The translations under genes and the position numbers were made by a program. From sequence record MK327947.1: a DNA stretch of 64,000 bases; one strand, 5' to 3'. Shown piece by piece: positions 38,136 through 43,700 of this stretch (positions are counted from its first letter, which is position 1; the number at the start of each line of letters is the position of its first letter). The notes beneath the pieces are model-generated. The model did not search any database. It had not been told where the DNA came from and saw nothing but the letters and a program-made list of their open reading frames with translations. This stretch comes from Escherichia phage vB_EcoM_G5211.

Positions 38136-38675
38136 CTATTCTCCATCAATTTTGTTTATATTGTAGCCCATGTTGCCTTTTTCTATTTCTCTCAACGCAA
38201 CTGAATTAAACGCTCTTGCCGCATCTTGTTCGCTATCAAATCTCCCTATATGAACACTCTTTCCTTGTATATTAATATGAACTAGCCATCTATTTGTGTA
38301 CTTACACCAACTTACCCCGTTATATTTTGATGATGCACCTTTAAATTTAGTTCTGTTTCTATTATTGACAGAATAATCAGTACCTCGTAAATTTTCTATA
38401 TGATTGTTCAGCTTGTTTCGGTCGATGTGATCTATAACTTTAGGCTTATGCCCGTGAAACATATGATAAATCACATGATGTATTAACTTCTTTCTATTGT
38501 CTACTGTTAGTTGAAGATATCCCCCATTATGTGGACTTCCAACCTCATCACCAACTTTAACTTTATTGCTTGTTGAAACCTTTCTGAAAAGTTTACCATC
38601 TTCGTATTTAAATAGATAATGATACCTTTCGTAAAGTATTCGGTCCTCTTCCGTATAATGTATTACCTCATACAT
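38136..38675 (-). CDS. HNH homing endonuclease with AP2-like DNA-binding domain (mobE-like position between nrdA and nrdB)
   Basis: HNH motif ..IDHIDRNKLNNHIENLR..; AP2-like SSKYNGVSW..KSVHIGRFDSEQDAARAF. Confidence 0.75.
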   Translation of the reverse strand: MYEVIHYTEEDRILYERYHYLFKYEDGKLFRKVSTSNKVKVGDEVGSPHNGGYLQLTVDNRKKLIHHVIYHMFHGHKPKVIDHIDRNKLNNHIENLRGTDYSVNNRNRTKFKGASSKYNGVSWCKYTNRWLVHINIQGKSVHIGRFDSEQDAARAFNSVALREIEKGNMGYNINKIDGE

Positions 38676-39261: not shown

Positions 39262-41505
39262 TTACAGCTTGCAAGATGAGCACTCGCTAGCGTCTTCCGT
39301 ACCATCTGCACCGTCGCGAACGTTCGCATAATACAGGGTTTTCAGACCGTAATATTGAGCAAACAACATATCATCTAATACATCAGCAATATCGACTTTA
39401 CCAGTCTTATAAGTGCTTGGATCGTAGGATGTGTTGGAACTAATCGCCTGATCTACAAACTTCTGCATGATCGCTGCCAGTGTCAGATAAGGCTTGTTAC
39501 CTTTCTTGATCAGTGTCCAAAGCAGGTCAATAACATCAGCATTATTCTCTACGTTCGGAATAACCTGATTAAATTGCCCTTCTTTCGATCCTTTAACCGA
39601 TACAATACCGCGAGGCGGTTCAATACCGTTTGTGCTGTTAGATACCTGAGAAGACGACTCACAAGGCATCAGCGCCGACAGTGTACTGTTACGAATGCCA
39701 TATTTTTTCAGGTCTTCGCGCAGTTCTTCCCAATCCATCTCATACACCGGATCAACCAGTTCATCTACTGTCTTTTTGTACCAGTCGATAGGAAGTTCAC
39801 CGCGACCATAGCGTGTTTCGTGCATCAGTTCGCAAGCACCCTTCTCTTTAGCCAGTCGCACACTAGCCTTAATCAGAGCATATTGCAAGCGTTCAAACGT
39901 TTTATGCGTAAACTCGTTAGCGTCTTCATATGTGAAGAAATTATCTGCTAGATATGATGCAAAGTTAGTAACACCAACACCCAGAGAGCGACGTTTTTTG
40001 GCTGTCAGAGCTTGTTCTACAGGATAATCCTGATAATCTAACAGGTTGTCAAGTGCACGCACCATAACCATAGCAATGCGTTCTACTTCTTCCATATTTT
40101 CGATATCGAAATTACCTAAAACATATGCTGCCAAAGTACATAGGCTAATTTCTGAATCATCACGCCCCATCGGTTTTGTTGGCAGAGCAATTTCACAACA
40201 CAAGTTAGATTGTTTAATCGGTGCTACATTACGAATAAACGCCCCGTGATTGTTCATGTTGTCTGTGAACGTTGGGTAGATTCGACCAGTGTTAAAACGT
40301 TCAATTGCCACCGCTAAAAACAGGTCTTCGGCTTTAACACGAGTTTTACGAACACTCGGATCTTTTTCCAGTTTTTCGTAAAGCTGGCGGAAACCTTCCT
40401 CATCTCGGAAGTATAGATCCCACAACAAGCCACCCGCAACATCTGGACTAAACAGAGTAATGTAATCCCGTTTAAGGAATCGCTCTACCATCAGGTTATT
40501 AATCTGTACGCCGTAGTCAAGATGGCGAATGCGGTTATCTTCCACGCCCTTATTGTTCTTTAACACAATCAGACTTTCAAACTCTAAATGCCACATTGGG
40601 TAATAGAGAGTCGCCGCCCCGCCACGAATGCCGCCTTGTGAGCATGACTTAACGGCAGTCTGAAAATGTTTCCAGAATGGGATAACGCCAGTATGACGAA
40701 CTTCACCATGCCCGATCTTAGATCCTTCCGCGCGAATCATGCCAGCGTTGATACCGATACCAGCACGCTTGCTAATATACTTGATGATTGCATTTGCTGT
40801 TTCGTTGATGCCCTGCAATGAGTCATCACTTTCAATCACCACACACGAACTAAATTGGCGTGTTGGGGTACGCACACCTGCCATAATCGGAGTAGGCAGA
40901 GAGATTTGCTTATTCGCAACAGCATTATAAAAATCAATCACATGTTCAAGTCGATTTTCTGTCTCTTCTTGATGCAAGCACATACCGATCAGCATATACG
41001 CAAATTGCGGTGTTTCGATGATTTTCTTAGTGCTGCGATCCTGAACAAGATATTTCTCTTTTAACTGCATCGCACCAGCATAGGTCATTTTAAAATCAAG
41101 TTTATGGTCGATGAATTTCTCCAGATATTCCACTTCTTCACGGGAATACTTTTGCAGAATTTCGCGATCATATTTTCCGGTTGCAATATTACGCTCAATA
41201 TGGCTGTAAAAATCAATCGGTTGGAATTGACCGTATACTGATTTGCGAAGCGCGAACATTGCAAGGTTACTTGCTACATATTGATAATCGGGCGTTTCTA
41301 CCGTGATGTTATCTGCGGCGACCTTAATCAATACTTTCTGGATATCATTGGTAGACATACCTTCTGTCAGAAGTGGTTCAACCATATCAAACAATTCATA
41401 TGGATCAACGTTATGACCTTCGGCTGCCGCTTCCAGAATTTTCATTACTTTTTCTTTTTCAAACGGAACAGTCAGACCGGAAGACTTAACAACATTTTTA
41501 ATCAT
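39262..41505 (-). CDS. nrdA: ribonucleotide reductase large subunit
   Basis: 747 aa; ATP-cone N-terminus; catalytic-site motifs (..NLCCEI.., ..CESSSQV..); C-terminal CSSCKL. Confidence 0.9.
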   Translation of the reverse strand: MIKNVVKSSGLTVPFEKEKVMKILEAAAEGHNVDPYELFDMVEPLLTEGMSTNDIQKVLIKVAADNITVETPDYQYVASNLAMFALRKSVYGQFQPIDFYSHIERNIATGKYDREILQKYSREEVEYLEKFIDHKLDFKMTYAGAMQLKEKYLVQDRSTKKIIETPQFAYMLIGMCLHQEETENRLEHVIDFYNAVANKQISLPTPIMAGVRTPTRQFSSCVVIESDDSLQGINETANAIIKYISKRAGIGINAGMIRAEGSKIGHGEVRHTGVIPFWKHFQTAVKSCSQGGIRGGAATLYYPMWHLEFESLIVLKNNKGVEDNRIRHLDYGVQINNLMVERFLKRDYITLFSPDVAGGLLWDLYFRDEEGFRQLYEKLEKDPSVRKTRVKAEDLFLAVAIERFNTGRIYPTFTDNMNNHGAFIRNVAPIKQSNLCCEIALPTKPMGRDDSEISLCTLAAYVLGNFDIENMEEVERIAMVMVRALDNLLDYQDYPVEQALTAKKRRSLGVGVTNFASYLADNFFTYEDANEFTHKTFERLQYALIKASVRLAKEKGACELMHETRYGRGELPIDWYKKTVDELVDPVYEMDWEELREDLKKYGIRNSTLSALMPCESSSQVSNSTNGIEPPRGIVSVKGSKEGQFNQVIPNVENNADVIDLLWTLIKKGNKPYLTLAAIMQKFVDQAISSNTSYDPSTYKTGKVDIADVLDDMLFAQYYGLKTLYYANVRDGADGTEDASECSSCKL

Positions 41506-41552: not shown

Positions 41553-41577
41553 GGGGGCTTTCGCCCCCCTTTTTTTT
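41553..41577 (+). terminator. antisense-oriented intrinsic terminator (GNRA-type hairpin plus T9) between td and nrdA
   Basis: On the + strand GGGGGC-tttc-GCCCCC followed by nine T; local genes are on the - strand. Confidence 0.45.
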
Positions 41578-42796
41578 ATACTGCCATTTGAGCGGTGATC
41601 GCTGGATGGCTTTGATAGTTGTGAATTTTAAAGTCTTTAGGAGTTTTTGTCAATACCTCATCTAAAGATTTAAATTCCGGCAACTCAATTGTTGGTTTAT
41701 CAAACGGAACACGGCTTAACTGTTCCATAACTTGGTCAAAATGGTTTTTGTAAATGTGAGTATCTCCACCAGAGAAAATCAGTTCTCCTACCTCAAGATC
41801 ACACATTTTCGCTATGATGTGAGTTAACAGCGCATAGCTGGCGACGTTAAAGGGCAAGCCCAAAAAGCTGTCTACGCTTCGCTGAAACCACATACAAGAC
41901 AATTTACCTTCATTGACATAGAATTGCACGAAAGGATGACATACACCTAATACAGCATTATGTGTTCCTTGTACGTTCCATGAGTCAATAATGATCCGGC
42001 GATCCGTTGGATTGTTTTTAATTTGTTCAATCACGTTTTGTAACTGGTCTTCCCAAATCTTCGGGCGATAGACATATTCTTCATCGTCTTTAGTGCTTGA
42101 TGTGTCTACGTCCATACTAACAAACATCGTGGTATCCGGTGCTATAATATCCCCACCCAGATAATCACTATCAAGCAGATAACCGAAATAACCATCATCT
42201 ACCCATTCCTGGAATCCCCACAAGCAATATGCATCATTAACAAAATTAGATTGAGTCTTCCAGTGGTCTGCTACCAGAATATAATCAAACTCTTCATAAC
42301 GCATACCACGCCAGATAGCACATAAACGGTCTTCTGTGTCATTGGTTGGCGTAAAGTCTTCTACCCACGGGTGCTTAAATGTATGTGTATATTTGCTCTT
42401 AACGCGCTTAATTTTGATTTCACCATGTGGATGAATCGGTTTGCGTCGCCACGCCATACCATACATATTGCCGACATTATAACCATTGAATCGCAAGGGA
42501 TTCTTTTCTTTCATATCAAGACAGTTGCCGCGCCAAATATCAAAGGCTTCCTCGTCAAACTTGCCTCGTGTAATTTCCTGTAAGCGACGGCGGTCAAGTG
42601 ATCCCTCCATAAACCATAGCAATTCGCCAATTACAGAGGCTGTAGCCATCTTTTTAGTGGTAAGTAAGGGGAAACCCTTGCTTAAGTCAATTCGCATCTC
42701 TGCGCCGAATTTAGATAGCGTACCTACCCCCGTGCGGTCTTCACGAGGCCAGCCATTATCAAGAACATCATGCAACAGTTTCAAATATTCTTTCAT
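41576..42796 (-). CDS. td: thymidylate synthase with ~120-aa in-frame insertion
   Basis: TS hallmarks DRTGVGT, CHPFVQFYV..GKLSC..FQRSVDSFLGLPFNVASYALL; 406 aa versus ~265-286 aa for typical TS; continuous ORF with no intron. Confidence 0.85.
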   Translation of the reverse strand: MKEYLKLLHDVLDNGWPREDRTGVGTLSKFGAEMRIDLSKGFPLLTTKKMATASVIGELLWFMEGSLDRRRLQEITRGKFDEEAFDIWRGNCLDMKEKNPLRFNGYNVGNMYGMAWRRKPIHPHGEIKIKRVKSKYTHTFKHPWVEDFTPTNDTEDRLCAIWRGMRYEEFDYILVADHWKTQSNFVNDAYCLWGFQEWVDDGYFGYLLDSDYLGGDIIAPDTTMFVSMDVDTSSTKDDEEYVYRPKIWEDQLQNVIEQIKNNPTDRRIIIDSWNVQGTHNAVLGVCHPFVQFYVNEGKLSCMWFQRSVDSFLGLPFNVASYALLTHIIAKMCDLEVGELIFSGGDTHIYKNHFDQVMEQLSRVPFDKPTIELPEFKSLDEVLTKTPKDFKIHNYQSHPAITAQMAV

Positions 42797-43037
42797 CCCA
42801 CATCACCTTTTTCTTATTGATTGCTTTCTTACGCAGTTTTGCTACTGTCTCGTCAATATCGATAAAGACAACTCCACGGTCGAATATAGTAGCAGGTCTT
42901 GAGATATCGCTATTTTCCTGTACTGGAAGCCATGATGCGCTCGCTTCATCATAGAGATATTGTAAACCGTAATAATCTACGGCTACTGCGTAGTTTTCAC
43001 TGGTAGCTGACCATAATTGAATAATACCGACTTTCAT
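42768..43037 (-). CDS. hypothetical protein (89 aa from internal ATG) between frd and td
   Basis: The track ORF starts at GTG 43064; the internal ATG overlaps the stop of a 30-aa mini-ORF. Confidence 0.5.
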   Translation of the reverse strand: MKVGIIQLWSATSENYAVAVDYYGLQYLYDEASASWLPVQENSDISRPATIFDRGVVFIDIDETVAKLRKKAINKKKVMWDERIFETVA

Positions 43038-43129
43038 TATTGTTCCCGTCCGCAATGTAAACACCGACTACCAGCAAACATCAAAGATTCACCACAATGT
43101 TTGCACTCATAATCTGTCAGAATTTTCAT
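43037..43129 (-). CDS. 30-aa zinc-ribbon mini-ORF
   Basis: MKILTDYECKHCGESLMFAGSRCLHCGREQ; sits between the frd stop and the next ATG with 1-nt overlaps. Confidence 0.3.
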   Translation of the reverse strand: MKILTDYECKHCGESLMFAGSRCLHCGREQ

Positions 43130-43130
43130 G

Positions 43131-43700
43131 TTACGCCTTCTTACGTTCTAAAATTTGTTCGCTGATCAGGTAATCATCAAGGAAGTAATTATGTTCTTCT
43201 TTTGTTGCAAAGTCAAAATATAATTCCTGAATCATTTCCTTAGAGATGCCAACATCATATTCAAACGGATCATTAATTCCTGATCGTTGAACATACGTTA
43301 ACACAATACGGTCCGCAAAGTCAACTGCTTTTTCAATCAGGGAAGGTCCGCCAATAACGCTTACCAAACCTTGCGTTTTCTCTAGGGCTTTTAACAGATC
43401 CTTCAATTCAATTCCAGTATACACATCAGGTTGGTCGCCGTTTTTAGCTTTCGGTTCTGGCTTGCTGGTATCGGTGCTAATAACCACATTCAAACGTCCC
43501 CAAAGTGCTTTAGGCAGACTTTCAAAGGTATTACGTCCCATTACTACCGCAGCAAAATCAACCTCGCCAATAGTGCGGATTTTAAAGTTTTCCATATCTT
43601 TTTTGATTGGACGCCCCCACGGTAAACCGCCTTTAAAACCAAAAGCCCAATTTTCATCCGACATTTTAGTGTCACCAATCGCAAATACACATTGAATCAT
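43131..43700 (-). CDS. frd: dihydrofolate reductase
   Basis: 189 aa; ..GLPWGRPIKKD.. and ..VIGGPSLIE.. DHFR motifs; TAGGAGA RBS. Confidence 0.85.
   Translation of the reverse strand: MIQCVFAIGDTKMSDENWAFGFKGGLPWGRPIKKDMENFKIRTIGEVDFAAVVMGRNTFESLPKALWGRLNVVISTDTSKPEPKAKNGDQPDVYTGIELKDLLKALEKTQGLVSVIGGPSLIEKAVDFADRIVLTYVQRSGINDPFEYDVGISKEMIQELYFDFATKEEHNYFLDDYLISEQILERKKA

Follow-up and report, generated by a model that had tools for sequence, protein, structure and literature searches.

A fixed, in-frame insert in the thymidylate synthase of RB49-like phages is probably the relic of a homing-endonuclease-like gene

The td gene of Escherichia phage vB_EcoM_G5211, an RB49-like coliphage of the genus Krischvirus, encodes a thymidylate synthase (TS) that is interrupted by a 132-residue insert in a surface β-hairpin. 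We examined this gene within a 64,000-nucleotide stretch of record MK327947.1 (hereafter the window) and compared it with td genes and related proteins from other phages. We propose that the insert is probably a decayed and defunct relic of a homing-endonuclease-like gene, which is still translated, has become fixed in the genus, and sits unspliced in the enzyme. A first-pass annotation of the window had considered that the insert might be an extra domain that the enzyme had acquired, or else what is left, in fixed form, of a mobile element, a suggestion that gains substance from our finding of an intact form of the element at the same site in many phage TS genes.

Results

The td product is a ThyA-type enzyme with a long excursion in a surface hairpin

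Judged against PF00303 / TIGR03284, the td protein belongs to the TS family, and the Pfam Thymidylat_synt model matches it in two stretches that represent both halves of the fold (E 3.9e-84). Residues 1-82 and 250-406 align with E. coli ThyA. In a multiple alignment, the 10 residues that lie between R99 and D110 of the E. coli enzyme correspond to 132 residues between R117 and D250 of the window protein, an excess of 122, and this alignment indicates that a short surface β-hairpin (E. coli residues 100-109) is replaced in td by the 132-residue excursion. The dUMP- and folate-binding residues R21, E58, W88, Y112, R266, R267, H287, R306, D309, H347 and Y349 are all present (checked against E. 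coli R21, E58, W80, Y94, R126', R127', H147, R166, D169, H207 and Y209, respectively), as are the catalytic cysteine, C286 (E. coli C146), and N317 (E. coli N177), the asparagine that specifies uracil, as opposed to the aspartate of dCMP hydroxymethylases. By sequence, the td product is thus a ThyA-type thymidylate synthase, and it is predicted to synthesize dTMP from dUMP and methylene-tetrahydrofolate.

These results agree with the first-pass annotation in its description of an in-frame insertion of about 120 residues, of a continuous 406-residue open reading frame (ORF), and of catalytic motifs that are all intact. Its label of the W-R-R preceding the insert as phosphate-binding was mistaken, however: W116-R117-R118 aligns with E. 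coli W98-R99-A100, and the two arginines that do bind phosphate (E. coli R126/R127) correspond to R266/R267, which follow the insert.

The insert matches the middle module of a family of free-standing endonuclease-like proteins

A tblastn search with the 131-aa insert matched all Krischvirus genomes, the interior of the 517-aa ThyA of the ~358-kb jumbo phages UE-S1, KP13-7 and phiKp_21 (E 3e-12, 31-34% identity), and, in Vibrio phages, a TS-like protein of 477 aa that carries the label 'HNH endonuclease' (E 9e-7). When a protein database was queried with full-length td, insert-bearing TS of 401-613 aa outranked ordinary enzymes of 276-304 aa. The insert alone found no match in a word-indexed protein database, which reflects the index rather than an absence, since the full-length query succeeded.

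By alignment, the long TS inserts consist of three modules: a β-rich module A that ends in GVGYLG, a module B with the pattern LYxxWxxM...CxRWxNFxNF...LWGFQEWVD...LDKDYxG..YSPxTCxF...N, and a module C with the pattern LNGGG..vY..G..F.S.... These inserts match the 'HNH endonuclease' families phrog_2081/953/374 (E 4e-32), and free-standing relatives of 178-273 aa, comprising A and B with or without C, are found in more than 1,000 phage records. The free-standing genes are located between terS/terL, between nrdB/thioredoxin, or two genes from a normal thyA, positions that are typical slots of free-standing homing endonucleases. A hidden Markov model (HMM) built from 103 free-standing proteins matched the window td directly (E 1.6e-5), and td was its only match among the 399 six-frame ORFs of the window; with this model we found no intact gene of the same family elsewhere in the window that might act in trans. 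At the level of sequence similarity, the insert is therefore homologous to module B, the middle module of this free-standing family. The earlier statement that the insert has no homing-endonuclease motifs is correct for motifs as such, as no HNH Pfam match was obtained for the window insert, the long inserts or the free-standing members, but it misses the detectable homology to a homing-endonuclease-like family.

The sole significant match of the free-standing family among solved structures is the homing endonuclease I-HmuI, with which the family is collinear from end to end, and many members carry PF22083, an I-HmuI NUMOD-like domain, at the C-terminus. A free-standing member was modelled at a predicted local distance difference test score (pLDDT) of 96.5 as a β-barrel, a helical module, and a hairpin with a helix-turn-helix. 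In this model, the β-β-α unit that ends the helical module B bears N163 and the D-K-D motif (D137-K138-D139) that is invariant in the 103 free-standing proteins. We also considered whether module B could be equated by alignment with the HNH core of I-HmuI and set this aside: hhalign gave no support, and only the β-β-α topology is shared between the two.

The protein annotated 'HNH endonuclease' in Vibrio phage D181 (L002 2638-4071; CAM0023654) is a divergent TS-superfamily enzyme with embedded modules B and C; its catalytic cysteine is present, the counterpart of R127 is a tyrosine and the DRTG motif is altered, and it may be a different pyrimidine-modifying enzyme. In Vibrio phage K460, a free-standing member (L005 1393-2214) is found two genes upstream of a normal thyA (282 aa), an arrangement that suggests a route by which such a gene could target or enter td. 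The free-standing proteins P0127 and P0142 carry three to about seven tandem copies of module A before a single module B. One apparent second host protein (P0221, 'NTP pyrophosphatase') was rejected: it has the usual A+B+C make-up plus a C-terminal extension, and Pfam finds no domain in the protein. Among the proteins classified, we found no host of the module other than TS.

The module occupies one site in many TS lineages and is graded from intact to relic

A profile search with the insert returned 8,800 cluster representatives at E <= 1e-3, and 75 of the 146 new top representatives were thymidylate synthases. We mapped the site of insertion with separate models of the N- and C-terminal TS halves, covering at least 79 TS lineages (clusters). 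In 79/79 complete insert-bearing TS, the module falls between E. coli residues R99 and D110. The C-side junction is right before the conserved D-Q, and in 69 of the 79 the C-half model resumes at E. coli 110/111. These alignments indicate a single insertion site shared by many TS backbones. A second site near E. coli residue ~84, which Pfam coordinates had seemed to indicate, was an artefact of local-alignment ends, given the uniform result of the half-models. About a dozen of the 79 (P0261, P0272, P0329, P0341, P0364 and P0378 among them) have a further insertion of ~10-70 aa near E. coli 152-158.

We scored the copies for the 11 family-invariant residues of module B (R85-C86-Y87, Y97, D137-K138-D139, Y150, S151, C155 and N163). 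Inserts with at least 230 extra residues (n = 58) keep a mean of 10.3 of the 11, with D-K-D intact in 57 of the 58, while those with fewer than 180 (n = 11) keep a mean of 2.8 and D-K-D in none. The window copy, with 122 extra residues, keeps 2 of the 11 and reads D-S-D; it is without K138, Y150, S151, C155, the R-C-Y loop and N163. What it retains are family scaffold residues, mainly hydrophobic (W79, V104, W108, F114 and T154). Modules A and C are absent, with 0/65 and 2/60 of their positions covered. Given the loss of the invariant residues and of both flanking modules, together with a net charge of -14 (see below), binding or cutting of DNA by the window remnant is hardly possible.

In a neighbor-joining (NJ) tree of module B, the short forms, which comprise those of Krischvirus, P0003-5, and P0006 (encoded by a different T4-like genome that shares the frd-td-nrdA synteny), are monophyletic in 99/100 bootstraps, and we therefore regard the truncation as old and stably inherited.

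The insert is translated and probably remains in the enzyme

An Rfam search of the td gene at E <= 10 gave no match beyond noise, and neither the window nor five loci with related long TS genes gave an Rfam match that reached the gathering score. At E <= 1, no Hint/intein Pfam domain was detected in the td protein, and intein junction residues (C/S/T in first position; His-Asn and then C/S/T at the end) were not found at its junctions, which read WR/RKPIHPHG and YRPKIWE/DQL. We likewise found no direct or inverted repeats flanking the insert, no transposon-like ends, and no anomaly of base composition.

Across nine Krischvirus td genes, the ratio of nonsynonymous to synonymous divergence (dN/dS, or omega) was 0.15-0.5 (~0.25) in the insert and 0.01-0.03 (~0.02) in the TS core, a constraint about 10 times weaker, and an in-frame 12-nt indel (EEFD[SEYN]) is polymorphic within the insert among the td genes of loci L007-L014. 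Because dN/dS is below 1 yet about 10-fold that of the core, and because the indel keeps the reading frame, the insert is translated and constrained, if in a relaxed manner. Taken together, these results indicate that the insert is translated with the enzyme, remains in the protein, and is neither an intron nor an intein, in line with the doubt about both that the first-pass annotation had expressed.

The insert is predicted to fold as a stalked domain

The first-pass annotation had proposed structure prediction as a check, and the insert does model confidently. AlphaFold2, with a 48-sequence alignment as input, gave a model of the td protein with a mean pLDDT of 93.5, a predicted template modelling score (pTM) of 0.92, and pLDDT of 86-98 within the insert. 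In this model, residues 118-130 pair with residues 241-250 to give a long two-stranded stalk that extends the native TS hairpin, and residues 153-227 fold into a compact four-helix domain with a small hairpin (helices 153-171, 177-189 and 195-200; hairpin 206-209/224-227). The degenerate D-S-D stands where the family has D-K-D, the motif that closes the first strand of its β-β-α unit. The globule retains the scaffold residues W162, W179 and F185 and the sequence LWGFQEWVD. Both junctions carry motifs common to insert-bearing TS, P-x-PHG on the N-side and (Y/H)V(Y/V)RPxI(W/Y) on the C-side. Residues 118-142 are basic (net charge +7), and residues 143-236 have a net charge of -14, compared with +2.5 +/- 3.3 in intact embedded modules. 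None of the solved TS structures that we compared has anything like this stalked insert domain.

The insert is fixed in Krischvirus

The window td is 96-99% identical to the td genes of 58 Krischvirus genomes, and the insert is present in 58/58 of these relatives (RB49, Phi1, JSE, GEC-3S and others), with td proteins of 406-411 aa and no presence/absence polymorphism. The insert is therefore fixed in the genus rather than peculiar to the G5211 isolate. The first-pass annotation had held that close homologues of the same length would speak against an insertion. The whole genus does share this length, but the shared length shows fixation and not the lack of an insertion, because more distant TS genes are without the insert and an insert-less TS that is ~86% identical to an insert-bearing one exists.

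Two further features of these genes concern their divergence. In the td gene of Escherichia virus KFS-EC (L014), a ~300-nt patch at gene nt 781-1080 is 52-82% identical to the window gene and the remainder 90-100%; the patch lies ~30 nt downstream of the insert and points to recombination beside it within the genus. In most Krischvirus td pairs (window vs L007-L013), synonymous divergence (dS) of the defunct insert falls below that of the TS core, as between the window and JK32 (0.034 in the insert vs 0.178 in the core), for which a dead element offers no evident mechanism.

The intact element shows signs of movement

The signs of movement, in presence/absence, mosaicism and dS, concern the intact form and not the window copy. 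The core of the insert-bearing P0017 (559 aa) is 78-87% (~86%) identical to the insert-less P0019 and ~52% identical to the window protein, and comparisons of this kind indicate that the TS backbones carrying the insert are polyphyletic and mosaic. UE-S1 and P0015 share 84% identity over the distal core, but identity drops to 41% in the flanks next to the insert and to 29% within it (p 2e-12). Just upstream of the window insert, a run of 48 residues shows 81% identity to P0008, compared with 50% for the distal core (p 8e-5) and 43-53% over the remaining core. Between UE-S1 and phiKp_21, dS is 0.55 in the insert and 1.24 in the flanking core (p 2e-4), and because insert dS falls below core dS, the intact insert appears younger than its host gene; module B of this pair is under strong constraint (omega 0.076). 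Mosaic flanks, polyphyly and low dS together form the pattern that would be expected of homing with co-conversion, to which ordinary phage recombination could contribute. BLAST scores had hinted at an independent capture by P0017, but the module B NJ tree places its insert nearest other TS inserts, and we do not claim a second capture.

Genomic neighborhood

The td gene lies in a T4-type array of gp59, gp32, frd, td, nrdA, an HNH_3/AP2 endonuclease gene and nrdB, followed by rnlA and pseT (Table 1). The HNH_3/AP2 ORF occupies the mobE slot of T4, and its endonuclease family differs from that of the td insert. Some Krischvirus phages (SAP) have modified cytosines, and the genus is without known hydroxymethylase homologues (PMC13390438); because the uracil-specifying Asn317 is present, td is no obvious candidate for this modification.

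Table 1. Features of the td gene, its insert and the surrounding region (window positions).
Feature	Positions	Strand	Basis or remarks
td, ThyA-type thymidylate synthase (predicted)	41576..42796	-	406 aa + stop; continuous ORF; ATG start
TS N-terminal core, residues 1-117, ending W116-R117 (= E. coli W98-R99)	42446..42796	-	alignment to E. coli ThyA
Insert, residues 118-249, 132 aa	42050..42445	-	alignment, homology, dN/dS, pLDDT 86-98
TS C-terminal core, residues 250-406 (R266/R267, catalytic C286-H287, R306, D309, N317, H347, Y349)	41579..42049	-	alignment to E. coli ThyA
N-side stalk strand, residues 118-130 (RKPIHPHGEIKIK)	42407..42445	-	AlphaFold2 strand E118-130
Globular remnant of module B, residues 153-227	42116..42340	-	AlphaFold2; scaffold vs invariant residues; charge
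L-D-S-D-Y, residues 208-212, degenerate counterpart of family-invariant D-K-D	42161..42175	-	alignment to family
Site of deleted R-C-Y loop of module B and of in-frame 12-nt indel EEFD[SEYN]	42281..42295	-	alignment
C-side stalk strand, residues 241-249 (YVYRPKIWE)	42050..42076	-	AlphaFold2 strand E241-250; directly before D250-Q251 (= E. coli D110-Q111)
frd, dihydrofolate reductase; upstream of td in same operon-like array	43131..43700	-	Pfam DHFR_1, E 1e-20
nrdA, class Ia ribonucleotide reductase large subunit; downstream of td	39262..41505	-	ORF; annotation in relatives
Free-standing 179-aa ORF with HNH_3 (E 1e-9) and AP2 (E 4e-7)	38136-38675	-	between nrdA and nrdB; abuts nrdB start
98-aa ORF overlapping td start codon region by 29 nt	42768-43064	-	hypothetical protein RB49ORF236c in all relatives; no Pfam match
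GC-rich hairpin (GGGGGCTTTCGCCCCC) then T-run, terminator-like on + strand	41553-41568		in 70-nt td-nrdA spacer; terminator annotated there in one relative

Discussion

A probable course of events behind the present td gene begins with a member of the free-standing endonuclease-like family inserting in-frame into td. Recombination, most likely through homing-like gene conversion, would then have carried the element from one td allele to another, and the element would have reached the ancestor of RB49-like and related T4-type phages, where it decayed: modules A and C and the R-C-Y loop would have been deleted, D-K-D would have become D-S-D, 9 of the 11 invariants would have been lost, and the surface would have turned strongly acidic. 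The resulting remnant would neither cut nor specifically bind DNA. We propose that it is tolerated because the stalk keeps the domain clear of the catalytic core, and that it persists because it must still fold so as not to damage an essential enzyme, and because clean removal takes two exact in-frame breakpoints. The direction of transfer, the homing mechanism and the present inertness of the remnant are steps that we infer.

The chief rival accepts the same origin but holds that the remnant has been exapted, for instance to dock proteins in the T4-type dNTP-synthesizing complex, to regulate TS, or to mimic DNA or another nucleic acid. The short form is stable in size and monophyletic over a deep divergence (99/100 bootstraps), the insert is under purifying selection (omega ~0.25), surface-type motifs (DAYCLWGFQEWVD and GDIxAPDT) are strongly conserved between proteins that are 52-61% identical, the fold is predicted with high confidence and in a defined orientation (pTM 0.92), and the net charge has moved to -14, more than 3 sd from the intact modules. 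Selection on the insert is nevertheless ~10-fold weaker than on the core, and the conserved residues are largely those of a hydrophobic scaffold that is conserved in the parent family too, as expected for mere foldability; moreover, T4 and most phages manage without such a domain, and any partner or activity is only hypothetical. We consider exaptation somewhat unlikely on this balance. That the Krischvirus insert has retained endonuclease activity or sequence-specific DNA binding seems highly improbable: it is homologous to an endonuclease-like family and its N-side stalk is basic (+7), but the predicted DNA-binding parts (modules A and C) are gone, K138, Y150, S151, C155, the R-C-Y loop and N163 are missing, and the globule carries a net charge of -14.

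Two other explanations concern the nature of the element and the direction of its transfer. The td gene is a classic intron host in T4, and an in-frame ORF alone does not exclude an intron or an intein, so that removal of the insert as a self-splicing group I intron with an in-frame ORF, or as an intein, deserves mention. It is contradicted by the lack of an Rfam intron in the gene, the window and five related loci, by the lack of a Hint domain or intein junction residues, by conservation at the amino-acid level with dN/dS < 1 and an in-frame indel, and by junction strands that model as one continuous β-hairpin with the TS core, and we regard it as extremely unlikely. The domain could instead have arisen within TS and given rise to the free-standing proteins, as TS-embedded copies are numerous (at least 79 clusters) and the TS inserts are moderately supported as a group (48/100). 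The free-standing family is far larger, however, with 8,800 representatives overall and over 1,000 phage records; its architecture follows that of I-HmuI from end to end, its number of A modules varies and its genomic contexts are many, whereas the TS backbones that carry the insert are polyphyletic and mosaic, and an origin within TS is therefore very unlikely.

Several points weigh against the view that the insert is the inert relic of an endonuclease-like gene. The direction from free-standing gene to TS follows from parsimony, and both the activity of Td and the presence of the insert in the mature protein are predictions from sequence. A single clade of all TS inserts is recovered in 48/100 bootstraps of the module B NJ tree. 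Profile comparison ties module C, and not module B, to I-HmuI, and the parent family, a putative nuclease family, has a lysine where HNH enzymes have the catalytic histidine. Finally, the remnant is near-constant in size (126-139 aa) across T4-like lineages that are 52-61% identical, and its stable size, purifying selection, confident fold and shift to negative charge could equally mean a new role.

Comparison with known systems places the element among, yet apart from, other mobile genes of phages. I-HmuI, an HNH homing endonuclease of Bacillus phage SPO1 (PDB 1u3e), is intron-encoded and has a canonical D-H...N catalytic motif; in the parent family described here, the motif is D-K-D...N, the N-terminal barrel differs and the helical module B is larger, and the window copy is left with a decayed module B only. 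The T4 td intron element encodes a GIY-YIG enzyme, is removed by RNA splicing and lies at a site different from that of the window insert. It resembles our case in the host gene, in the T4-type phage and in bearing a homing endonuclease, I-TevI, within a group I intron that invades td (PMC2988022). The window insert, by contrast, has no detectable RNA structure and is translated within the enzyme. Inteins such as that of mycobacteriophage ThyX, which has a homing-endonuclease domain (PMC5050341), share the in-frame placement of an endonuclease-containing element in a conserved enzyme of nucleotide metabolism and a cycle of invasion, fixation and decay. They self-excise by means of a Hint splicing domain; the window insert has neither Hint nor splice-junction residues and must therefore be accommodated in the mature enzyme. 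Degenerate endonuclease relics are also known to persist in the nucleotide-metabolism clusters of T4-type phages, namely I-TevIII and mobE between nrdA and nrdB (PMC2790892), although these are separate or intron ORFs and the window relic is part of its host protein.

Closer in form are the homing-endonuclease ORFs of fungal mitochondria that are joined in-frame to host genes without a splicing element (PMC7902536). The TS module differs from these in being internal, within a surface hairpin of a folded enzyme. The fungal fusions are terminal, and the end of the host gene is usually duplicated. TS itself has lineage-specific inserts in the small domain, including a 50-residue insert in Lactobacillus casei, ~10 residues upstream of the window insert site, and the eukaryotic inserts of human TS, which has ~8 extra residues at the same hairpin where T4 Td has almost none. 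The same variable surface region thus takes extra residues in these enzymes, but these inserts are short and are not known to be related to mobile-element proteins. A full-text literature search, which did not extend to the original RB49 genome paper, turned up no account of this insert or of endonuclease-like modules embedded in TS.

To our knowledge, homing endonuclease genes have been thought to persist in essential genes only if an intron or intein removes them, or else to be intergenic. The series described here, graded from intact to relic at a single conserved position across at least 79 divergent TS lineages of phages, indicates that a whole endonuclease-like protein may be tolerated as an extra domain of TS. 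Tentatively, the intact copies may represent a further lifestyle of homing endonuclease genes, next to those carried by introns or inteins and those that stand free: in-frame, unspliced, expressed as part of the host enzyme and spreading by homing with co-conversion of the flanks, of which the Krischvirus insert would be a fossil end-stage, maybe reused. If intact forms do cut insert-less td alleles, models of gene invasion by selfish elements would widen, and phage competition would gain a new mechanism at a nucleotide-metabolism locus. The hairpin may further serve protein engineering as a natural 'safe harbour' in TS, and public records at present label such proteins inconsistently as TS, 'hypothetical protein' or 'HNH endonuclease'. 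For the phage studied here, a decayed homing-endonuclease-like module would account for a 20-year-old oddity of RB49-type td genes.

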